Source of the DNA: Nitrospirota bacterium
Lineage (GTDB): Bacteria > Nitrospirota > UBA9217
DNA length: 64,000 nucleotides
Direction of reading: 5' to 3'
Assembly: GCA_963790205.1 (NCBI GenBank)
Contig: CAWBNQ010000014.1
Span: forward strand, 160,001-224,000
Under the pieces are notes generated by a model. It saw only the letters and a list, made by a program, of their open reading frames with translations, was not told the origin of the DNA and made no database searches. The position numbers were made by a program, and so were the translations under genes. This document shows positions 2,382 to 44,713 of the stretch, piece after piece; the first letter of the stretch is position 1; the number at the start of each line of letters is the position of its first letter.

Positions 2382-4859
2382 TTACACCACCACATTCACC
2401 AGCTTGCCCTGGACCACGATGACCTTCTTTGGGGTCTTTCCGTTCATGAATTCCCTCACCTTGGGGTCCGCGAGGGCAGCGGCCTCGACGTCCTTATCAG
2501 AACCGCCGGCGGGAAGCGTGAGTTTGCTTCTGACCTTGCCGTTCACCTGCACAACGACGGTAAGTCTCCGACGCGACGATCGCTTCGGGATCATACTTTG
2601 GCCAGGGCGCGTTCGCGATGCTCTCCTTGTTGCCGAGCGATTCCCAGAGCTCCTCGGCAAAGTGCGGCGCAAAAGGAGCGATCAGCAGCATGAGCGCGTC
2701 GATCGCCAACCGCAGCACCGGCCCTTGCTTGTCAGGGTTGAACCCGTTCGACGCGTAATCGTACATCTCATTCACCATCTCCATGAGCGCCGAGATCGCG
2801 GTGTTGAAGTGGAACTCGCGCTCGATGTCCTCGGTCACTTTCTTGATTGTGAGGTGGGTCTTGCGGAAGAGCTTGTCCCCCCGCGCTTCGGACCCCGCGG
2901 GCTTGACGTTTTTGACCGCCTCGCTGTGCTTGTACACGATGGTCCAGACACGGTGGAGGAACCGGTATGCGCCGTCCACGCCCTGGTCGCTCCATTCAAG
3001 GTCGCGTTCCGGCGGCGCGGCAAAGAGCGAAAAGAGCCGCGCCGTGTCAGCGCCGTACTTCGTGAGGATAAAATCCGGGTCCACCACGTTGCCCTTGGAC
3101 TTGCTCATCTTGGCGCCGTCCTTGATCACCATGCCCTGCGTGAGCAAATTCTTGAACGGCTCATCGCCGTCAAAAAGCCCCAGGTCGCGTATCACCTTGG
3201 TAAAAAATCTCGCATAGAGCAGATGGAGCACGGCGTGCTCGATGCCGCCGATGTACTGGTCGACGCTCATCCAGTAACCTGCCGCTTTTTTATCGAAAGG
3301 CGCTTTGGTCTCTTTCGGGGAGCAGTAGCGGAGGAAGTACCACGACGAGTCCACGAAGGTGTCCATCGTGTCCGTCTCGCGCCACGCTTTGCCGCCGCAC
3401 TTCGGACAGGTCGTTTCCCGGAAGGACCGGGACTCGGCCAGGGGCGAGCGGCCCTTGCCCGTGAGCTCGACATCGACCGGAAGCCGCACCGGCAGGTCTT
3501 TTTCGGGCACCGGCACGGTGCCGCAAGCGTCGCAGTAGATGATCGGGATCGGCGTGCCCCAGTAGCGCTGGCGCGAGATTCCCCAGTCGCGGAGCCGCCA
3601 GTTCACCGTGCGTCTCGCCGATCTTCTTCTGTCTCAACATAATCGGCGACCGTCTCTTTCCCCCTCGCATTCGGCGTACCGTCAAAGGGTCCCGAGTTCA
3701 CCATCGTCCCTTCCGCGACAAAGGCCTCCTTCATTGCCCGGGGCTCGAGGTTCTTCTCCGCATTCTGGATCACGACGCGAATGGGAATAGTATACTTCTT
3801 CGCGAACTCGAAGTCGCGCTGATCGTGGGCGGGCACGGACATGATCGCTCCGGTGCCGTATTCCATGAGAACGAAGTTGCCGACCCAGACCGGGACCTTC
3901 TCGCTGTTCAACGGGTTGACGGCATAGGCGCCGGTGAAGACGCCTTCCTTTTCCTGTTTCTCGTCGGTGCGCGCCGCCTTGTCCTCGCGCATAACGCGCT
4001 GGCAGAACGCGCGCACGTCGTCGGCCTGCGGCTTCCCCTTGATGAGGGATTCCAGCATGGGGTGCTCCGGCGCTATGCTCATGAAGGTCACGCCGAAGAG
4101 CGTGTCCGGCCTCGTGGTGAAGATCGTGAGCTTCTCGCCCGTGCCCTCGACCGTAAAGTCCACCTCCACGCCGACGGACTTGCCGATCCAGTTCCGCTGC
4201 ATCGTGAGCACGCGCTCCGGCCAGCCCGTAAGTTTGTCAATGGAGGAGAGAAGTTCCTCGGCGTAGTCCGTGATCTTGAAAAACCACTGGTCGAGCTCCT
4301 TGTGCTGCACCACGGAACTGCAGCGCCAGCAAAGACCGTCCTCCACCTGCTCGTTCGCGAGCACGGTATTGCAGGACGGACACCAGTTCACGTACGAGAG
4401 TTTTTTGTATGCGAGGCCGCGCTCGTACATCTTGATAAAGAACCACTGGTTCCAGCGGTAATACTCTTCGAGGCAGGTGGTCACCTCGCGGTCCCAGTCG
4501 TAGGACAGACCAAGCCGCTTCAACTGCTTGTCGCGCATGAAGGCGATGTTCTCGAGGGTCCATTTGGCGGGATGGATACCATGCTTGATCGCCGCGTTTT
4601 CCGCCGGCAGGCCGAAAGAATCCCAGCCCATGGGATGAAGCACGTTGAAACCGCGCATCCGCTTATAGCGCGAGATCACGTCGCCGATGGCGTAATTACG
4701 AACGTGGCCCATGTGGATCCTGCCTGACGGGTACGGGAACATCTCGAGACAGTAGTACTTCGGCTTCGACGCGTCTTCCGTTACCGTAAAGGTCTTTTGC
4801 TCGGCCCAATGGCGCTGCCAGCGCTCTTCAACTTTCTTAAAATCGTACCGTTCGTCCAA
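2382..4859 (-). CDS. leuS: Leucyl-tRNA synthetase (split by indels near 3610-3635 and ~2570)
   Basis: MFPYPSG, HMGH, KMSKS motifs and C-terminal VQVNGKVR spread over three consecutive frames. Confidence 0.96.
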
Positions 4860-12252: not shown

Positions 12253-12477
12253 CTAATTCGTCTTGTGGCAAACCAGGCATTGTCCCTTGGGAGGATGGGT
12301 CGGCTTAAGCGGCGCCTGCTTTGCGGGCCCGTGGCACGCGACGCATCCGGCATCCGTGGTAATGCCGCTGTGCAGGACATCAGACGGAATAGGGGGAACT
12401 TTTTTGCTTGAAGAGAGCAAGAATAAGAGCAGCAGCACAACGAGAATAAAAACTGCAATACCTATGGTATTCTTCAT
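12253..12477 (-). CDS. Small membrane-anchored diheme c-type cytochrome
   Basis: N-terminal TM helix; CVACH and CLVCH heme motifs plus two extra His. Confidence 0.82.
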   Translation of the reverse strand: MKNTIGIAVFILVVLLLLFLLSSSKKVPPIPSDVLHSGITTDAGCVACHGPAKQAPLKPTHPPKGQCLVCHKTN

Positions 12478-13093
12478 GTCGATAAACCCCCGCTTGGTTT
12501 GTCGGAAATTGTCCCGGGCTCTTTATTAAAACATACTTAGCCCGATGAACAAACGGTCCGCTCCAAAAAGCTTGCCTTTCCCGTGGTGATCAGTAAAAAA
12601 TGATTATGATGAGTTCACATCCACGAATACCTTGTCCAAGGGAACTGTTTTTTGAAAATGCAAATATGCTCCACAATCGTTTTCAGAGGCCCAAATTAAT
12701 TTTACCCGAGTATCTTTGCAAAAGCAATCTCTCGAATGTTCTCAGCTTCGTTTCAGCAGATGGAACTGGGTTTTATTGCAGTCAATCCAAACCCGCGGGC
12801 CCATAACGCCCGCGCTTTCAGCACACACCCGTAGCAGCCGCCCGTTCTCTGTCTGAAGCAGGCCGGCTCTCCCTTCATGCATGCCGTCTTCCGCTGCATT
12901 GAAATCATGATACCATCAGGGACTCCCGGAACGGGAGTTTATTTGTGTAAAACCCAACCGTTAAATCATGGCCCCTGCTTTGATATTCTGCTATAATTTG
13001 TCCATAGATTTCTGATAAATAGCCTTCCTTTTTGAACCTACAGCTCGGACCTTGAATCGTAAATCTTGCATCCCCGTTTTCGAAGGAGCGTTC

Positions 13094-16000
13094 ATGAAGC
13101 ATTATAAATTCGATGTCATCATAATCGGCGCGGGCCCTGCCGGCGTGACTGCCGCGGGCGCGCTCGCGGGAACGGGCATCTCCGTAGCCCTGCTCGAGGC
13201 AGGCGTATACGCCGGGGCCGAGAACTGGTCCGGGTGCGTGTACTTCGCGGAGGGCTTGGCGGAAAAGGACTGTTTCGGGACCGAGGCCGTTCTGAAAGCC
13301 CCGTTCGAGCGGCGCGTGGTCCGTCGCGGCACGCTCGTGCACAACGGTCTTGACGTCGTGGGTGTGGAGCTTACCGACCCGGACGCGTTCAAGAACTGCT
13401 ACACCGTGCTCAGGCCGGTATACGATCCCTACTTCGCGGACCTTGCCCGCAGAAAAGGCGCAATCCACATCACGGAAACGACGGTCACCTCGCTCATCCG
13501 AAAAGACAACAGGGTCATCGGCGCGGAGACGAACCGCGGCCCGCTGTATGCCGACCTTACCTTCATTGCCGAAGGCGACGCGTCGCATCTCGTCCGCGCT
13601 GAACAGCTCGAACGCGCGGCGGAACCGCACTTTCTCCAGGGGGTAAAGGCCGTGCTCTCGCTCAAACCCGAAGAGCTCGAGAAGCGGTTCAGGCTCGGCC
13701 CCGGCGAGGGCGCGGCCTATGAACTGCTCCTCCGGAACGCCTCGATCGGGGGCAGGACCGCAAAGCTGAACGTCGGCGGCTTCCTCTATACGAACCAGGA
13801 CAGCCTCTCCATGGGCTACGTGGTCCCCCTCGACAACGTGCGGAACAACTACCGCGGCAATCACGACAATCTGTTCGAATGGATGAAGGGACTTCCTTTT
13901 ATCAAGGAACTGACGGAGGGAGCCGCGCTTTCAGCCTACGGCACGAAGATCATCAGGAGCGGCGGATGGCGGGAACGGCCGAAACTCATCGAAGACGGGC
14001 TTGTTGTCGGCGGCGCGTCAGCCGGACTCGGCGTCGACCTCCCTTTCCCGAATTTCACCGGCCCTGCCTCGGCAACGGGACTCTATTTTGCGCGGGCAGC
14101 CAGGACCCTCCTCCTGCACGGCCGGACGCCGGACGAGAAAAATCTTGCACAAGAATATCTCGACCCGCTCCGTGAGAGCGTTTACGGAAAGAACGCTCAG
14201 TATCTTTCTCAATGGCCGCATTACTTCGGAAAATCGAAGGTGCTTTTCGGCAGGACCGCGGACATGGCCTGCGGCACGGCCCATTTCCTGTCGAACGGAA
14301 GCCTTATCGAGACCGGGAGGTTCCTCAGAAACCACATCCTCTCCATCCGCGGATTGAAGGAAGCGATCACCGACACCGCACGCATGATCAGCAGCCTCAG
14401 GCTCTGGAAACCGATGGTGACCTCAACGATCAACGCCGGCACCTTCCGGCGCTGGTTTACGAATATCTTTAAAAAAGCTCCCGCGCGCGGGGCAAGGCTC
14501 GGCATCATCCTTCGCATTGCAGGCAAGGATGTTGATGCAACAACCCTGCCCTGGCCCGTGGGCCCGCTGATCAAAAGGCTTTCCCCCGCGCTCCTCAGCG
14601 CGCTCGAGCAAATCTACGGGAACGATGATCAGCCTGTCGGGAAAAAACTTTCAACAGCCTTGCGGCACGTCATAAGGGGCTTGCAGCTGACCGACATCAT
14701 CGTGCTTCCCCTGTTCGGCATGCTTCTCTTCATCATCGCTCTCGGCACGGCACTGTGGGACGCCTTTCGATTCTACGTGCTCAAAACACCGGTGGACCGG
14801 TTTCTTGCCGAGCCGGTGATGGCGTACAACGAATCGCAGAGAAAGGCAAGGGACCTCGACGCGGTCAGACCGGCCGTCAGCCTCGACGCAAAGCTCGCCA
14901 CGAACACCTACCGCGCCGGAACAGTGTCGCACATAAGAACGCTCTGGCCGGAATCGATCAAGGCCCAGCCCGACATGTCCCAGGCCGGGCTCTGGTGGGT
15001 CTGCCCGGCGCGCGTCTACGTCTATGACGCGCCGCCCTTTGCCGGCCGCGGCAGGGTGACGGTGAACTATGAGAACTGCATCAAATGCGAGTCCTGCTGG
15101 CGGGCCGAGCCCGGCCGCGTTCTCTGGGGAAGACACACGGACCACAAGCTCATCTACCGGCCCGAGAGCGCGGCAATGGCGTCCTTGATCGAGACGATGA
15201 AATCAGCGCCTCCGAAACAACAGCAGGCAGCGACGGCCCCGGTCCTGCTCGAAGAAACAGTGTGGTATGTGAGCGACGGGATCAAGCGTTCCTCGCGTGC
15301 CGCGCTGATGGCGTTAACGGCCTTCAGGGACAGCGTGGCAAAACTGCCCTCCTCGGCCGACAAAACGCGGCGGGCATGGCCGTCGGCGCTCGGCAGGAGA
15401 CTCGGAGAAAAGCTCGAGAAGCTCGAAGCGGCGTTCGTGAACGACGGCAGGTCCGCCCAGACCCACATGGTCCGGGCGGAGCGAAATAATCTCGAGGTCA
15501 GGCTTGCCGAAGGAAGATTATTTCATGCGCTCTACTGCTGTCAACGGGTCGAGCAGCGGCTCCAGGCATGGACCGGCGATCGCGAAGACGCGCGGAGCTC
15601 CGACCCGGCAACAACAAATACGGGCAGCACTCTTACCTACGATGAAGTATCGAGTTTATTCCCCGACAGGGTCGTGAAGCAATGGGAAGAGGGTCCCCTG
15701 CCCCCGGAGTGGGCCGGAAAGCTATGGGCCTTCATCTCCGAACATCAGGACGCACCTCAAGACGCCGTGCGCGCGCTCTCGTCCGTCAGTCCCGCGCTCG
15801 GCCTGATCGCCGCGTATCAGTTCCCTGCAGTCGCAGTGCTGGCAAAAGCGGAAATCACCCTGCCTCCCGGCATCTGCGCAGTAGCTTCGGACGATATCGA
15901 CATCCGTGAATCGATCGACAGCGTGAAGCTCCGGGGAACGTTCCATCTTATGCCGCTTGCCGCGTGCAATACTCTTCTCGTTACCGCAAACAATAAAGGC

Positions 16001-19000
16001 CATATCGTTCCGCTTTCCACACCGGGGGTCACGATCACCCCCACGCCGGCGATCGGTTTCAGGGCAGCGGCGCTGTCCGATGTCGTCCTGGACTGCACCG
16101 TGAAAAAACAGGCGCTCATGATCGCCGAGGGGAGAGACGCGCCCGATGCGGCCTCGTACCTCGCGATCGCGTTGGGCGCCGGAGACTATCTCTGCAAAAG
16201 GATAAAGGAGCATGCTGCCGGACGGGTCCAGTTCCCCGGCCAGATGCTCGACACCGAGGGCCGTGACGGCATCGCGAAGCTCGGTGCGGTCAAAGCCATG
16301 ATCGGCCGGACCGAAGCGTGGCGGCTCCTGCTGGAAACCCTGTACAAGACATCGACGGAATCCTCTCCCCTCTGGGGAGAGGGAAAGGGCCTGCACCCAG
16401 CGTTTACGAGTGCGAGTGCAGGGCATGAGGGGGCGCTCCGAACTCAGAACTCCAAACTCGATTTCAACCTCCTCTGCGCCTCGGTCGCCGCCATGGCTTT
16501 CAGTCCCGAGCCGGGCGCCATGGGCTACGACGCGGGCCAGGTCTTCGGCGGGTTCGCCTATTCCGAGGACGACCTGCTTTCGAGGTTCTACCGTGACAGT
16601 TCGCTGTTCAGGTTCCTTGCGCCCGGCTATGGGGCTTCGGCGAAACTGCACGCCGCATTAGGCGAAGAAAGCCGCGATCGGTCCCTTTCCCTTTTCAGCA
16701 GTCTCGATGCCGGCCGCGGAGAGCCGCTGGGACCGCCGGCATTGCGTTTGACGGCAATCACCAGGAAGTGTACGTTGATTTCATCTCGTGCCGATGCTTC
16801 GCTCGCAGGCGAAGCCAAGGCCATCGCGCTGGCTGTTCGCGATCTACTGGCAATAATCGAGAAAGGGCTGGACGAAGGCAAAAGCATGGAGGCCGAGGCT
16901 GCCGCTGTCGAGGTGCTGCTCGCATTAGCTGAAGACGCGGTACAAAAAGCGGAGCTGTCCGCTGGGCGCGGCGCCGTGTCCCCGACGGCCGTATTCCCCG
17001 TCGAACCCGCGGGGAATGAGGTGACACTGGATGCATACTACGAGGCGTTCTGTGCACCTTCGGGAGCGCCGCACAGATCCGGCCGCTTCCTCACGACCGC
17101 ATTCGACCGTTCCGCCCGCTTCGTGCCCGAGATGCAGCTCCATGACGCGAAACTCAGGGCTCGCTGGATCGAACTCGCGGACTGGTTCAAAAAGAACTGC
17201 CGCGACAAAAAGTTCGACGGCCTTCATATCGAGCGCTACATCGAGAAGGTCCACCGTCTGCCCGACGAGGTGCTCCAGGCGGCAAAAGACAACAAATGGC
17301 TCGCCACCACTATCCCCGGAACCGAAGACGGGTTGGGATGGCGGAAAGCGGAATACTACATTTTAAACGCCATGGCCGGCAGCTTCGGCGATGCGGGCAT
17401 CGACCTTTTGATCATGGCGAGCACGAGCATCGGCACTACCCCGATCCTGCTCGGTCTCGAGGAAGAACTGCCGCGCGTGCGCGAAGAGCTGGCGCCCCTG
17501 GCACAGGATGAACGAAAGCTCGGCGAGATCGGCGCGCGGCTCGCGAAGCTCGTCCGGACCCTTTCCAATCCCAACCCCGCCTGGATCAGGAAAGAATACG
17601 AGGCCGTGATGAAGCTCGTTGACGAACGCATTCGCCGCACCCGCGTGGTCAAATACCTTGCCGCCAACTTTCTACGGGCCTTCTACGGCGCGGGCATCGC
17701 CGGCAGGCGCGGAGACTTCAACGGATTTATTTCGAACCTCAAACACGCAGACGAACTGTTCGCAAAGCTCATGCCCGACGTGCAGGCGGCGCTCGATGAG
17801 CTGCCGCGCCGTGAGCGCTGCCACAAGCTCTTTCTCCGCTTTCTCGGCCACGGCGGTGTAAGCGCCTTTGCCCTGACCGAGCCCACGGCGGGGTCCGACT
17901 CGGGCGGGGTCAAGACCACGGCCAAGCTGCAAAGCGCCGGAGCTTACACCGCCTTGACGACGGCAGGTATTCTTTTTATTTGAATGACGACGAGAAGAGC
18001 ACCAGGTACCTGATCGATGCGGACAAGATCGTTTTCCTCGATCACGGCATTGCCTATCACACGCCTGACGGGCAGGTAGCGCCGATCAAGTACGACAAGT
18101 ACGACTACGCGACCGATCAGGGTATTCGCTACTACCTCCGTAACGGGAAGGAATGTCCGTTCCACGACATCGGCCAGGTGCGGGAATCAAATGCCGGACT
18201 CGTGTACGAATATTACAGCATGACGGGCGCAAAGATGTGGATCACGAACGGCAGCATCGCGACCCAGTTCTGTCTCTACGCCCAGACGCCGGAGGGCGTC
18301 ACCGGCTTCATGGTCGACCGGCACGCCGAGGGGCTCAAGGTCGGCGCTGACGAGAAAAAAACGGGCCAGCGCGGCTCGCCCACGAACGAGATATCGATCG
18401 ACAGCGCACGCGTACCGCGCGAGGCAGTCATCGGCTACGAGGGACATGGCCAGGTGAACGCCCTCGAAACTTTGAACGTCGGCCGCTGCGGCCTGGCCGT
18501 GGTGTCCGGCGCGCTCATGCGCAAGCTCATGCAGGAAGCGGCCCAGGCAATCCCCGCCTCGCCCGAACGCGACAGCCTCCTGGGCGAGGCCGCGGCCGTT
18601 CTCTTCGGCAGCGAAACCCTCGCCTATTACCTCGTCGGGCTCTTCGACCGGCCGCATGAGTCGGTGCGCATGGAATCGGCCATAGCTAAATACGTCTGTT
18701 CCGAGGACATCCATGAACTCCTCACGCTCGTGGAGCGCGCCTTCGGCCCGGCGGGCCAGACCGAGAAGTTCCTGCTCGAAAAAGCGCGCCGCGACAGCCG
18801 CATCCTCACGATCTACGAAGGCACGAACGAAGTGCAGCGCTTTCTGATCATTAAAAGACCTGATCGCCCAGGCCGCTTCCTGGCCCGAGCTCACTGAACA
18901 GCAGGAAGACGCCGCCTTGCGAACGCTGGCGTCGTGGAAAAGAAGGCTCCGGCTGCACGTCAAAGAAGCCGCGGCTCTCCTCGGCGACGCCGGCTGGTCC

Positions 19001-21079
19001 GATGCCATGCTTCAGCCCGCCCTGTTCCCGCTTGCCGAGATGGCCGGCGAGATACTTCGGCTTGAATGTATTTATTACCGGGTGAGATGGCTGAACGATT
19101 CAAACGCACTTCTCGCGCAAAACTCTCCGGACTATATACCCGGGATGCAAGCCGCGGCGCAACGCGCTGCCGACAGGGCAATAGCTCGTCTCGAACACCT
19201 CAGCGGAAAATATGTATCAACAGGGGAGCGTGTGAGAGACGGCTTGGACATGCCCGAGGTGGTTATTACAGATGCCGTCCTCGCCGGCATGGCAGCAAAA
19301 CCTTCTCGACACTATGAAGCGCCGGGAGCGCTGTATGCCCCGGTACGCGTCCTCTCCATTGTCAGGCCAATCGCCGACATCTCTCCCGGCCCGAGAGTAT
19401 CGGACGGACAGCTCCGGGAACTTGTCTGGCGGCTGGACCCGTCCGACCTTGCCGGGTTGTCGCACATGTTCGCGCTCAAGTCCCAAAGCGGTCCTCAGGT
19501 GATCGTCGATGTGCTCATGCCCGGCGGCCCCGAGCATGACGCCCTCCTCAGGATGTCCGCGGGTGTTCGCGTTGACGGCCTGCTGCGCCTGGATATCGGT
19601 CCCACTGCGAGACCCGGCGCGTACGTAAAAACCGTGAGAGACCTCGAGGCATTGCAGCAATACGACCTTATCATTATTGGAGCGGATTGCCGGAATGGCG
19701 ACCAAAGTCTCGGCGCTTATCTTGCCGGCGCCCTCAAGAGGCTCCACTATCGCCGCGAGAAGATAGAGGTCAAGACAGACGGCAGCGGTTTTTTACACGT
19801 TGCCCCCCCGGCGGTGATCAGCGTCACGGCCATGACCCCGGAGCCGCTGATGTGCATGACCGATGCCGTCGGTTCTATGATGACGCGAATACGCGTTCTG
19901 GAATTCGCCGGAAAACCCGCTGCGGCGTCCGAACGCTTCGAACAGCCTGCCGGCTCCGCGGCAATCACCCGGATGATCGCCACGGTCGGCCAGGCGGCGG
20001 AATATCTCAAGTCCTTTGCCGCATCTGCGAGCGCAGCTTCTGCGCCGGATTACAAAGGAAGCGTCACGAAGGGCACGTTGAGCGATGGCGATGCGGTCTG
20101 GGCCGTGCTCGATCCAAATGAACCGAGGTCGAACCTGGCTGTTCTTCGCGCATCGCGCATGACAGCGGACCTGCTCGGCAAGAAAATGCGCGCCGCGATC
20201 GCGGCGCCGCGATCGCTGTGGCCGCAGCTTCTGGGGCTTGCCAGGGCGAATGGCTGTGAGCAGGCGTACTGCATCGATACCAGAGGGGGCAGGCTGTCGA
20301 ACGACGGGAAACGCAATCTGCTTCGGTCGCTCATCAAGACGTCTGATGCGACGTTTGTGCTCGCGGGAACGGAGTGGGCCGGTTCCTTCGCCTTTGTGGC
20401 GGGCGAATGGGAAGCTTCGAACAAGACGGTCCTGCTCTGCTCCGGCGTAACGCGCATCGAGAAGCAGGGAACGGGCGGGCTCGTCTTTTCCCTGCCTGTC
20501 TATGAAGGCAAGCTCGTCAGGCTCTGCGCATATGAGAAGGGGCCGGCCTTCGTTACGGTCGCCTTTGAGTCTGACTTCCCCGCCCCTTCAGAGCGGGCCG
20601 ATTTCAAGGTCTCGGCCCTCGCCATTGAAATCGATTCCGACTGGATCATGCCCCTGTTGCCGATCGCTGTGCCCACGCTCTCCCAAGCCGACGTGATCAT
20701 TGACCTCGGCTACGGCATCAGGGACAAAGCGGGATATGAACTGGCGCAGGAGCTGAAGAAGAAACTGGAATCCATGGGCCTCGCGCCCCTGTTCGGCGCC
20801 ACGCGCAAGGTCACGCAGGATTTGAAGCTCCTTCCGCTCGATGCGCAGATCGGCCAGACCGGCGTTCGCGTGAATCCGAAACTCATCATCGCCCTCGGCA
20901 TCTCAGGCGCGCCGCAGCACATCGACTACATCGGCGCGCGCGCGGAAATATTGTGCTTCAACAAGGACACCGAGGCTCCTTTGATGAGGCTCAATCAAAC
21001 TCACGCTTCCCCACGCGTGCATCCGATCGCGGGAGACCTCTTCGTGACCGTGAGGGAGTTGATCGAGAAACTGGGATAG
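13094..21079 (+). CDS. Giant fusion: FixC-like FAD oxidoreductase, FixX ferredoxin, two acyl-CoA dehydrogenase modules, EtfB-like, EtfA (split by indels at ~17940 and ~18855)
   Basis: GAGPAG and GGFLYTN (FixC); CPARVY...CIKCESC (FixX); RVQFPG and GGFAYSED..RFYRD (ACAD1); FALTEPTAGSD, GAKMWITNG, IYEGTNEVQR (ACAD2); QIGQTG..P.LIIALGISGAPQH (EtfA); GAAGGAG RBS at the start. Confidence 0.82.
16362..16460. repeat. REP-like palindrome plus heptamer repeat inside the giant CDS
   Basis: cctctcccc-tct-ggggagagg, then cctgcac...gtgcagg, then tgaggggg and ccgaact-cagaact-ccaaact. Confidence 0.6.
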
Positions 21080-21100: not shown

Positions 21101-21946
21101 ATGAACGATCAATTTAAAATCAATGCCGGAAATCCTGCTTGACCGCCCGCTGGCGCCGCCGGAGTTTGCCGGCGCGACAATGCTGAGACGCTCTCAAACG
21201 TTAGCCCGCAGCAGGACCCGGCAGCGATCAAAAGCGCGGTCAGACAGAAGTATGCCGAGGTAGCTGTTTCAGCGGCGGGCAAATTCCAGTATCCTACCGG
21301 CAAAGAGGGCGCGGAGCTCCTCGGATACGACCGCGCCCTTATCCAAAGCGCGCCTCCGCAGCTCCTTGATTCCTTTTGCGGCGTCGGAAACCCCTTTTCA
21401 CTCGGAGAGATCCGTCGCGGGTCGGCTGTGCTGGATGTCGGCTGCGGGGCGGGTTTCGATATGTATGTTGCGGGCCGGCTTGTCGGCGATCAAGGCAGGG
21501 TGTGCGGGATTGACCTGACCTATGAAATGGCGTCCCTTGCCCGGATGAACCTTGCGAAGTCAGATATTGCAAACGTTGAGATCAAAACGGTTGATATGGA
21601 ACACATTCCCTATCCTGACCATTCCTTCGACGTGGTCATATCCAACGGCGTCATCAACCTCTCCCCCTCCAAGCAGGTCACGTTCGAGGAAATCTATCGC
21701 GTTCTGAAGCCGGGCGGGGCACTGCAGTTTGCCGACGTTGTACTGGATAAAGATTTACCTGCATCCCTTGCAGGAAGCGCTGAAGCGTGGTCGCAATGAA
21801 TCGGCGGCGCGATCCCGGTCCGGGATCAAACGAGATTGCTGGAAGAGGCGGGTTTTAAGGAAGTTGAATGGTTGGGGATGACGGGTTTTCGAACCTCGGC
21901 GTATACCGTCGGCGCTCTGTTCAAGGCTCATAAACCGAAATCGTAA
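21101..21946 (+). CDS. ArsM-like SAM-dependent methyltransferase, putative selenoprotein (UGA at 21140 and 21797)
   Basis: GGAGGG RBS then ATG; single frame MNDQFKINAGNPA-U-PP...SFCGVGNPF...LDVGCGAGFD...SNGVINL...WSQ-U-IGGAIP...KPKS*; hairpin after each UGA. Confidence 0.82.
21811..21827 (+). promoter_or_regulatory. Bacterial SECIS-like hairpin
   Basis: GATCCCG-GTC-CGGGATC, 11 nt after the UGA at 21797-21799. Confidence 0.75.
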
Positions 21947-36973: not shown

Positions 36974-38745
36974 TTACTCCACGATGTCCAGCTTGATCGA
37001 CAGCTCCCGGAGCTGGGCGGGAGTGACCCTGGACGGGGCCTCGGTCATGACGCAGATGGCCTTCTGTGTCTTCGGGAAAGCGATCACGTCGCGGATGGAC
37101 GTGGCCCCGGTGAGGAGAGCGGTAAGCCGGTCGAGACCGAAGGCAAGGCCCCCATGGGGCGGCGCGCCGAACTCGAGTGCCTCAAGCAGGAACCCGAACT
37201 TTTTCCGGGCGTCCTCTTCGGATATATTCAGCAGGCCGAACATCTTGGACTGGACCTCGGAGCGGTGGATGCGGATGCTGCCTCCGCCGATCTCCGAGCC
37301 GTTCAGAACGATATCGTAGGCCTTCGCCCTGACCTTGAGGGGCTCCGTTTCCATGAACTGCAGGTCCTCGTCCTTCGGCGCAGTAAAAGGATGGTGCATG
37401 GCGTCGTACCGTTTCTCTTCCGGGCTCCACTCCACGAGCGGAAAGTCCGTGACCCAGAGGAAGTTGAATTTGCTCTCGTCGATGAGGTTCAGCCGCTTGC
37501 CCATGAGGAGCCGCAGATAGCCCAGCGTCTCGGCCACGACCTTCCGGCCGTCGGCAATGAACATCATGAGGTCGCCGGGCTTTGCCCCAAGCCGCTCCGC
37601 AATGGCTTTGACCTGGCCGTCCTTGAAGAACTTTGCGATCGGCGACTCGAAGCCCGCGTCGGTCACCTTGATCCAGGCCAGTCCCTTCGCCCCAAAGACC
37701 TTTGCCTCGTTCGTGAGGTCGTCAACCTCTTTTCGCGATAGACCCGCCATGCCCGGCGCGGCGAAACCTTTGACCTGGCCGCCCAGTTCCACGGCCTGGA
37801 GAAATACTTTAAAGTCGGACGCCTTCGCAATCTCGGAAATGTCCTTCAGTTCGAGTCCGAAGCGCGTGTCGGGCTTGTCCGAGCCATAGCGGTCCATGGC
37901 GTCGCGGTAGGTCAGGCGCGGGAAAGGTCGGATGAGCTCTACGCCCTTGACCGCTTTGAAAACCTCGGACAAGAGCTCCTCCATGAGCGACATAACGTCA
38001 TCTTCCTCGACAAAGGACATCTCGAGGTCGATCTGGGTGAATTCGGGCTGCCGGTCGGCGCGCAGGTCTTCGTCGCGGAAACACTTCACGATCTGGTAAT
38101 AGCGCTCGAACCCCGCCACCATCAGGATCTGCTTGAAGAGCTGAGGCGACTGCGGGAGCGCGTAGAACATGCCGGGGTTCACCCTGCTCGGCACCAGATA
38201 GTCGCGGGCGCCCTCTGGCGTGCTTTTCGTCAAGAACGGGGTTTCGATATCAACGAACCCGTGGTTGTCGAGGAAACGCCGCACGGTCCGGGTTATCTGG
38301 TGGCGCGTGATCAGCACCTTCTGGAGGCTCGGCCGCCGGAGGTCGAGATAGCGGTACTTGAGCCTGAGGGATTCGGCGACATCGGTCTCGTCCTCGATCA
38401 TGAACGGCGGGGTCTTGGACTCGTTCAGGATCAGAGGCGGCTCACCAGGACCTCGATCTCTCCCGTTTTCAGCTTGGCGTTCACGGTATTGCCCGGCCGC
38501 GGAGCAACGCTGCCGGTAACGGCGATCACGAACTCGCTCCTGATGTCGCCTGCCAGCGAGTGCGCGTCAGCGGATGTTTCGGGATTAAAAACCACCTGCG
38601 TGATGCCGCCGCGGTCCCGAAGGTCGATGAAGATCAGCCCTCCGTGGTCCCTTCTGGTGTGCACCCAGCCCATCAGGGTCACGGTCGCGCCCACGTTTTT
38701 TTTCGTCAAGTCCCCGCAGGTATGCGTCTTTTTCGTTGAGCTCAC
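36974..38745 (-). CDS. aspS: Aspartyl-tRNA synthetase (indel near 38432)
   Basis: [32 protein letters not shown] motifs. Confidence 0.96.
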
Positions 38746-38977
38746 CGGTTCGACAGCCTTTCTTGGTATGATGCAAAACAGGCAGGATAATAGCATCTCA
38801 TCCGCCATAAAGTCAAGCATAGGTTATGAAGCAAGCCAAGACAACGGCGCACTCACACGAAGACACGAAGAAAGACAAAACCGGGTTTCCTTTGTGGCTT
38901 CGTGTGAAAATTGGTTTTGTTTGACTCAAAATTCAAGATCCAGGATTGTAAATACTTTAGGGGCGGCGGGAAAAAAT

Positions 38978-43876: not shown

Positions 43877-44713
43877 TTACTCTCCTGCCAGGAGCGGCAT
43901 TGCCGAAGGAGGAAACACTTCGCGCGCCTCTGCTTCGGCAAAGAGCCTTCGCACCGCCTTGAGGCCTTCCTCCCCCAGATCAAGCGAAAAGTCGTTTACG
44001 TAAAGGCCGATGTGACTTTTCATTACCGCCGTGTCCATTTCCTGGCTGTGCTGCCTGCAGTAGCTCATCACTTCATCAGTATGTGCATGGGCATATTGCA
44101 CGCTCCGGCGGATGCCTTCTTCTACGGCCAGCAGGGTGTCCCGCCCCAGGGAGCGTTTCCCGAGGATGCCTCCCAGCGGGATCGGAAGACCCGAATGCCT
44201 CTCCCACCACTCGCCGAGATCAAGCAGTTTTTCAAGCTTATACAACGGATAGGTGAAGCGGCTCTCATGGATGATGAGCCCGGCGGCCGCCTCTCCTGTT
44301 GAGACGGCATCCATGATCCGGTCGAAGGTCATGATTGTCACGTTCTCGATCTTCGGATCGAAGAGACGGAGGAGCAGATAAGCGGTCGTGAGCTTGCCGG
44401 GGACGGCGATGACGCCGTTTTTAAGGTCCCCAAGCTTCGTCCCCGGCCTGGCAACGATGAGCGGGCCGCATCCCCTGCCGAGCGCTCCGCCGGAACGGAG
44501 CAGCGCGTACTGCTCGCGTAGATGGCCCAGTGCATGATAGGATATCTTGGTAAAATCGAGTTTTCCTTCGAGGGCCATGCGGTTCAGCGTTTCTACATCT
44601 TCAAGCTGCTCGCGAAATCCGACGCCGGTGACCTTTACTCTGCCGTGGATCAGGGCGTAGAATATGTAAGTGTCGTTCGGGCAGGGAGAATAGCCCATAG
44701 TAAACGTGCGCAT
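43877..44713 (-). CDS. mqnD: 1,4-dihydroxy-6-naphthoate synthase
   Basis: SPCPNDT, GALGRGCGP, IHESRFTY, HIGLYVN. Confidence 0.93.
   Translation of the reverse strand: MRTFTMGYSPCPNDTYIFYALIHGRVKVTGVGFREQLEDVETLNRMALEGKLDFTKISYHALGHLREQYALLRSGGALGRGCGPLIVARPGTKLGDLKNGVIAVPGKLTTAYLLLRLFDPKIENVTIMTFDRIMDAVSTGEAAAGLIIHESRFTYPLYKLEKLLDLGEWWERHSGLPIPLGGILGKRSLGRDTLLAVEEGIRRSVQYAHAHTDEVMSYCRQHSQEMDTAVMKSHIGLYVNDFSLDLGEEGLKAVRRLFAEAEAREVFPPSAMPLLAGE

Follow-up and report, generated by a model that had tools for sequence, protein, structure and literature searches.

We report that a single gene, located at 13094..21079 of a 64,000-nucleotide stretch of DNA (the window) from a Nitrospirota bacterium (UBA9217; GCA_963790205.1, contig CAWBNQ010000014.1, positions 160,001-224,000 of the forward strand), encodes the modules of a whole route from acyl-CoA through the electron-transferring flavoprotein (ETF) to quinone on one polypeptide. 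The single-chain fusion is real, as shown by intact homologues and by contigs of a near strain. The protein probably performs the FadE (acyl-CoA dehydrogenase, ACAD) step of beta-oxidation and feeds menaquinone through its tethered ETF. More tentatively, with the odds slightly against us, we propose that it belongs to a widespread family of acyl-CoA:menaquinone oxidoreductases that are complete in themselves, with paired half-site ACADs, an ETF that swings and serves its own chain, and a quinone reductase with one cluster, all of which would operate in cis.

One reading frame and its homologues

A preliminary description of this DNA had proposed that three consecutive open reading frames (ORFs) form one gene of about 2660 residues, interrupted by two surplus bases near 17940 and one near 18855. 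The frames and junctions were compared with contigs from two peat runs of one study, X1 and X2, which represent a near strain (~99.1% identity) and not the source reads of the assembly.

13094..21079, forward strand: whole fusion gene, 2,660 codons once three extra bases are skipped
13083..13088, forward strand: Shine-Dalgarno-like AAGGAG ahead of the ATG at 13094, read from the sequence
13019-17983 (ORF1), 17815-18897 (ORF2) and 18848-21079 (ORF3), forward strand: three stop-to-stop frames tiling the region
17941..17947, forward strand: junction 1, two bases missing in the X1 and X2 contigs
18849, forward strand: junction 2, one base missing in the X1 and X2 contigs

In the X1 contig, and likewise in those of X2, one base is absent at each of the positions 17941, 17947 and 18849, and no other insertion or deletion occurs in 8.2 kb; two further runs, X3 and X4, have no coverage at these positions. 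One RNA run contains 5% of the sequence words. In X1, one contig of 18,193 nt (depth 35, 73 substitutions, 3 gaps) spans the region completely, and the X2 contigs have a depth of 12-13. The two surplus bases of the first junction were thus placed exactly; the second junction does contain one extra base, but at 18849 and not within the A run to which it had been ascribed. Skipping the three bases resulted in 2,660 stop-free codons, with 86.5% identity end to end to the intact database protein P0002, and the proposal of one gene stands. The Pfam matches run across the frames in the same way: ORF1 matches a FAD Rossmann domain, ACAD_N and the start of ACAD_M, and weakly also the quinone and iron-sulfur models of ETF-QO; ORF2 contains the remainder of ACAD_M and ACAD_1; ORF3 contains ETF and ETF_alpha. 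ACAD_M itself is split, with profile positions 1-28 of 97 in ORF1 and 27-96 of 97 in ORF2.

Since X1 and X2 are not the assembly's own reads, the assembly itself was tested for frame errors. Frame changes relative to related genes were found in 16 of 159 orthologue-like genes, one or two of them doubtful; this count excludes five genes with in-frame stops alone, several of which resemble shadow ORFs. Within the window, leuS (2497-4859, reverse strand) and aspS (36974-38820, reverse strand) are each broken by frame changes, and dsrA of the host is also split. The breaks in the fusion gene are most likely assembly errors.

The search for uninterrupted homologues, suggested in the preliminary description with an expected length of about 2600 residues, gave at least 125 intact proteins, of 2,285-2,894 residues. 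They share the order FixC-like FAD domain, one [4Fe-4S] site, ACAD1, ACAD2, EtfB and EtfA. This family set comprises 96 full-order proteins among 119 non-self matches (the best 120 of 212) and 29 further representatives at 50% identity; unless stated otherwise, the motif counts below refer to these 125 proteins. At the genome level, 49 loci were collected, of which 32 cover the whole gene and 17 run into contig ends. The gene is a single ORF in 27 of the 32, and the other five are interrupted at scattered, non-recurring positions. Programmed frameshifting was considered and rejected because the break positions are not conserved among homologue loci. A metagenome scan for distant members retrieved mostly ordinary ACAD and ETF genes, with the full fusion in 1 of 80 loci.

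By record label, which is the sole basis for assigning phyla outside Nitrospirota, most homologues come from Nitrospirota, two from Acidobacteriota, one from Verrucomicrobiae, and one from a 'Betaproteobacteria' metagenome-assembled genome (MAG). The last label may be wrong because the FadJ-like gene of that MAG is 76% identical to that of the host.

Domains and cofactor sites

The following domains were delimited on the corrected chain, all on the forward strand.

13094..14413: FixC/ETF-QO-like domain for FAD and quinone, residues 1 to ~440 (7KOE_C E 1.7e-28; AlphaFold2 model)
14414..14893: helical insertion, with a strongly hydrophobic helix at 14696-14752, predicted to be membrane-binding
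14894..15178: predicted single [4Fe-4S] site of the ETF-QO pattern, with Cys-Pro at 15002 and CxxCxxC at 15077-15097
15281..15583: conserved linker domain with no assigned family, a module present in most homologues
15626..17068: ACAD1, an ACAD fold predicted to be catalytically dead, with R-x-Q-F at 16223-16234 and Q-x-F-G-G at 16538-16552
17126..19300: ACAD2, the predicted catalytic dehydrogenase, with TEPxAGSD at 17876-17899, KMWITN at 18232-18249 and the YEGT Glu motif at 18814-18825
19343..19900: EtfB-like domain, divergent and with no bifurcation motifs (ETF beta chain profiles E 5e-16 to 9e-9)
20080..21076: EtfA, a divergent N-terminal domain and a conserved FAD-binding domain at 20690-21076 (ETF_alpha E 1.6e-18)

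The Pfam scan and structure prediction that had been suggested earlier were carried out; they recovered the domains, the split of ACAD_M and the 4Fe-4S ligands, and the models reached predicted template modelling scores (pTM) of 0.88-0.89.

The N-terminal domain is predicted to be a quinone reductase of the FixC/ETF-QO kind. Its best match in the PDB is Thermotoga maritima FixC (7KOE_C, E 1.7e-28 over 5-329), whereas pig ETF-QO (2GMH, E 6e-11) aligns in three stretches that include the C-terminal cluster motif, the iron-sulfur part aligning with 2GMH 527-566; the value from a profile comparison is inflated by seven rows of stand-alone FixC. The Pfam match to ETFQO_UQ-bd was weak (E 0.014). The AlphaFold2 model of residues 1-700 had a predicted local distance difference test (pLDDT) score of 89.8 and a pTM of 0.89. 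Cysteines of the iron-sulfur part number four in 115 proteins and five in the other 10; the Cys-Pro pair occurs in 123 and CxxCxxC in all 125. Judged by this cysteine pattern, the site holds one cluster of the ETF-QO type, and the earlier assignment as a FixX module was not upheld; EtfX holds two clusters (PMC10734219).

The hydrophobic helix of the preliminary description, which had proposed a membrane-tethered protein, is present: residues 535-553 score 2.59 on the Kyte-Doolittle scale, a hydrophobic peak occurs in 17 of 19 proteins tested, and AlphaFold2 places a helix at 534-561. A simple one-pass anchor would be excluded by domain sidedness, because the preceding FAD domain and the following cluster and ACADs would have to share the cytoplasmic side. 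The helix more likely lies in-plane or is re-entrant.

The two ACAD domains have lost motifs reciprocally. ACAD1 keeps R-x-Q-F in all 125 proteins and Q-x-F-G-G in 123, contains neither YEGT nor TEP..GSD or KxWITN in any of them, and has a Glu at the catalytic position, taken from the J-K loop in PMC11153573, in 3 of 124 readable cases. ACAD2 has TEPxxGSD in 123, KxWITN in 123 and IYEGT in 120 proteins, with R-x-Q-F in two and GGxG in none; the R-K-Q-F loop is a deletion in its alignment with CarC and ACAD9. We take the R-x-Q-F and Q-x-x-G-G motifs as contacts to the FAD tail in the partner domain. Such a role is consistent with ChsE4-5 and ChsE1-2, in which the isoalloxazine lies with the Glu in one subunit while contacts to the ADP-ribose come from the other (PMC11153573), and with CasC, in which two ACAD domains are fused, the Glu is C-terminal and FAD binding needs the N-terminal domain (PMC8399759). 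Therefore, ACAD1 likely completes one active site with ACAD2 as a half-site pair. The pseudo-heterodimer of the preliminary description agrees with this motif loss, but its view of ACAD1 as possibly structural does not, as the FAD-tail motifs are retained.

A two-domain model of homologue L027 (pLDDT 87.1, pTM 0.88) gave fold matches for both domains. Residues 1-327 (ACAD1) matched ACAD folds up to Z 26.7 (root-mean-square deviation 3.5, 307 aligned), and residues 455-1180 (ACAD2) matched best the Bacillus ACAD 3OWA (Z 30.7, root-mean-square deviation 3.1, 491 aligned), followed by ACAD9 and VLCAD. ACAD2 carries two large insertions and a VLCAD/ACAD9-like C-terminal extension, and its identity to solved ACADs is 23-28%. 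No ChsE chain was among the matches listed for the ACAD alignment and fold searches, which excludes nothing; for this reason the split may have arisen independently of ChsE and CasC.

At the C-terminal end, the EtfB- and EtfA-like parts both match solved ETFs. The motif patterns that we assumed for the FAD site of EtfA, and verified by alignment to solved ETFs, are nearly invariant: G[AG][TS]R in 123 proteins, QIGQTG in 124, SGAxQH in 124 and NxD in 119. The signatures of bifurcation given in PMC9232219 and PMC10734219 are nearly missing from the 125 proteins (DGDTAQVGP-like 0, RxFxG 6, SPT 1, RPxFGG 3), and the last three are absent from the window copy. All four occur in the separate EtfAB of the host, which served as the positive control. 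The segment of EtfB with the AMP site and recognition loop is present but variable, and the loop pattern that we assumed occurs in 6 of 117 proteins. The preliminary description had called EtfB degenerate; the domain is divergent and lacks the bifurcation motifs.

Two groups of related genes were observed apart from the full-length family. A second subfamily of ~1,300-1,710 residues (P0146, P0150, P0154, P0159, P0163, P0164, P0167, P0169, P0170, P0173, P0174, P0184 and P0186) keeps the FixC-like and cluster domains, whereas its ACAD region is reduced to remnants; some members end in an EtfB-like part, and none of the six proteins scanned had an ACAD Pfam match. Additionally, stand-alone FixC genes of ~440 residues occur in other families of the phylum (G201, G211, G219, G223, G225 and G257), near a 3-hydroxyacyl-CoA dehydrogenase in three of these six genomes. 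They are possibly the unfused counterpart of the fusion.

Metabolic role and alternative readings

On contig C2, the host carries a fadD-fadI-fadJ-like cluster (ligase, thiolase, hydratase/dehydrogenase) without an ACAD, unlinked to the fusion gene. The best models of the cluster were long-chain FadD, FadI-type and FadJ, with all scores below the equivalog cut-offs. In seven relatives whose ORFs were inspected by eye, the thiolase and FadJ-like pair was found in all, the ligase in four and an evident ACAD in none.

Among 251 genomes of the phylum, the N-terminal module of the fusion was found in 31 and a close FadJ-like gene (E<1e-160) in 34, and all 31 fall within the 34; seven weaker matches to the module are stand-alone FixC and were left out. 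In the host's family, 25 genomes have both genes, three FadJ only, none the fusion only, and 10 neither. In genus g12, one genome of four has both genes and three have neither. The three FadJ-only genomes have conventional long ACADs, namely a 796-aa E. coli-type FadE in G083 and G121 and a 606-aa ACAD in G004. Genome G005 (L080:3901-6192) retains a fusion remnant with residues 491-2421 deleted, and has another ACAD and EtfA. In the Verrucomicrobiae MAG G260, of unstated completeness, the fusion is the sole ACAD match and a FadJ-like gene is present. The presence of PF02737 was uninformative (41 of 41), and against curated FadE models the fusion scored best with NF058590 at 143.6 bits, below the cut-off of 600. 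The FadE reading is based on the ACAD-less fad cluster of the host, the co-occurrence with FadJ and the conventional long ACADs in the FadJ-only genomes.

In the proposed mechanism, the substrate would be acyl-CoA made by FadD of the unlinked fadD-fadI-fadJ cluster. ACAD1 would pack on ACAD2, with ACAD2 supplying the flavin-ring pocket and the catalytic Glu, and ACAD1 the ADP-ribose contacts. Electrons would pass from acyl-CoA to the ACAD2 FAD, completed by ACAD1, then to the EtfA FAD, the [4Fe-4S] cluster, the FixC-like FAD and menaquinone. The FAD domain of EtfA would swing between the ACAD FAD and the cluster, and the FixC-like FAD would reduce quinone at the membrane surface. Each chain would hold three FAD and one cluster. 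The substrate, transfer in cis and the oligomeric state are inferred.

The host has MqnA/D, with one MqnA/D-family gene at ~43928-44701 (reverse strand) in the window, and its genome also encodes heme-copper and bd oxidases and dsrAB. The menaquinone-coupled step was computed as ~+12 kJ/mol (uphill) under standard conditions, so the direction would depend on the quinone pool. The forward reaction would therefore need an oxidised quinone pool, which the heme-copper and bd oxidases could maintain, and removal of the product by FadJ.

Several observations weigh against a FadE function or against parts of the mechanism. The standard potentials, -10 mV (PMC5861303) and -74 mV (PMC10734219), favour the reverse direction. 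The fusion gene was never in an operon with beta-oxidation genes across the loci inspected. Two further ACADs are encoded by the host; a bifurcating EtfAB accompanies one of them in a fatty-acid synthesis cluster, and the other lies in a polysaccharide-type region. Most of the co-occurrence falls inside two families, whose members are kin and do not count as independent cases, so that a Fisher value for it was set aside. By its cut-off (E<1e-160), the FadJ search selected for close orthologues; nine family-f9 genomes have a full-length FadJ-like gene of 38-41% identity and no fusion. Finally, in the cofactor-free model both ACAD domains have low confidence at their FAD-binding loops.

Four other explanations were weighed against the FadE reading. 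The same chain and cofactors could serve a substrate other than straight-chain fatty acyl-CoA, such as a branched, dicarboxylic or bulky one, which we regard as unlikely. The two large insertions of ACAD2 and its low identity to solved ACADs would suit it, as would the steroid side chains used by known half-site ACADs (PMC11153573, PMC8399759) and the lack of an operon link at the loci examined; however, the fusion co-occurs with FadJ-like genes and is replaced by conventional FadE-type genes, the fold class of ACAD2 is that of VLCAD, ACAD9 and the Bacillus FadE, and the cluster ligase scored best, below cut-offs, on long-chain fatty acid CoA ligase models.

Quite improbable is a reversal in vivo, with the enzyme acting as a menaquinol:enoyl-CoA reductase, either as an electron sink or in reverse beta-oxidation. 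Transfer from menaquinol to enoyl-CoA is downhill by ~12 kJ/mol by standard potentials, a dsrAB host may often keep its quinone pool reduced, and no heme-b membrane module is fused to the chain. Nevertheless, the partner cluster starts with a fatty acid CoA ligase, the fusion interchanges with FadE-type genes, and Mycobacterium smegmatis, with a different enzyme, drives butyryl-CoA to menaquinone under oxidase pull (PMC13083937).

That the breaks are real in this strain, through decay of the gene or separate translation of its pieces, is very unlikely: X1 and X2 are a near strain, G005 has a decayed copy and five of the 32 whole-gene loci are interrupted, yet the essential leuS and aspS and also dsrA are likewise split, the breaks lie inside conserved domains, and all cofactor motifs are intact in the window copy. 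That a dehydrogenase is fused here to an electron-bifurcating enzyme like Fix/EtfABCX has almost no likelihood, given one cluster instead of two and the near-complete lack of the bifurcation motifs that the host EtfAB control has in full, even though T. maritima FixC is the nearest solved relative of the N-terminal domain.

With the FadE reading retained, the interest of the protein lies less in its chemistry, which is probably familiar, than in its arrangement. An ETF shuttle contacts its dehydrogenase and quinone reductase only transiently, which makes a complete chain difficult to trap. With a natural one-chain version, the whole cycle would become open to cryo-electron microscopy and kinetics; if the proposal is true, both docking states of the ETF could also be imaged in one and the same particle. 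The tether would then keep electrons from beta-oxidation apart from the bifurcating ETF of the cell and would let them enter menaquinone on a slightly uphill path, with no heme-b module of the kind that other menaquinone users employ. In many uncultured Nitrospirota, among them a peat organism with dsrAB, the fusion would supply the FadE step that is otherwise missing, would point to fatty-acid use masked by automatic names such as 'FAD-binding protein', and could serve as a one-gene module coupling acyl-CoA oxidation to quinones.

The neighbourhood of the gene varies, and no conserved operon was found around it among 47 loci including the window. A 74-aa ORF at 12253-12477 (reverse strand) carries two CxxCH motifs, has a hydrophobic N-terminus and is divergently oriented from the fusion gene; its relatives lie upstream of the fusion gene in 10 loci including the window, and it had no NCBIfam match. 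On the other side, an arsenite methyltransferase gene at 21143-21799 (forward strand) ends in TGA, and selenocysteine read-through would add 48 residues; its best models are ArsM selenoproteins. Elsewhere, L071:6207-9552 (G000:C8) encodes an ACAD, EtfB and a ferredoxin-fused EtfA with all bifurcation motifs within a plsX-fabH-fabD-fabG-fabF cluster; together they may form a bifurcating enoyl reductase connected with fatty-acid synthesis.

Comparison with known systems

The classical chain of ACAD, EtfAB and ETF-QO (2GMH, human ETF 1EFV, VLCAD/ACAD9) has the same modules, the same predicted route and a single cluster of the ETF-QO pattern. As in that chain, ACAD2 belongs to the ~590-aa VLCAD/ACAD9 fold class and has its Glu at the MCAD position. 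The fusion differs from it in being one polypeptide, in having a FAD domain nearer FixC than ETF-QO, and in its half-site ACAD pair; moreover, its ETF would serve one dehydrogenase, and the host makes menaquinone. T. maritima Fix/EtfABCX (7KOE; PMC10734219) shares the FixC-like quinone-reducing FAD domain, the iron-sulfur relay and the ETF. It has four subunits, two clusters, a bifurcating FAD and NADH as donor, whereas the fusion has a single cluster, lacks bifurcation motifs and would take its electrons from the ACAD fused to it.

Partial fusions have been described. CasC of Rhodococcus jostii RHA1, ChsE4-ChsE5 and ChsE1-ChsE2 pair two ACAD domains, one with the Glu and the other for FAD, as is proposed for the fusion, but they act on steroid substrates and no ETF or quinone reductase is attached. 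SaETF likewise has EtfB followed by EtfA in one chain, although it is a stand-alone bifurcating ETF whose partners are encoded separately (PMC12042025). The mycobacterial EtfD connects the beta-oxidation ETF with menaquinone, which is the role proposed here for the fusion, but it is a separate protein with heme b and several clusters, non-homologous to ETF-QO (PMC13083937).

No description of the whole-chain fusion was found in the literature searched, which covered subscription journals to a limited extent; the earlier remark that no characterised protein has this architecture holds for the complete chain, while its sub-fusions have precedents in CasC and SaETF. All modules and two partial fusions (EtfB-EtfA and half-site ACADs) are thus already known, and the whole chain is a new arrangement of them within a known pathway.

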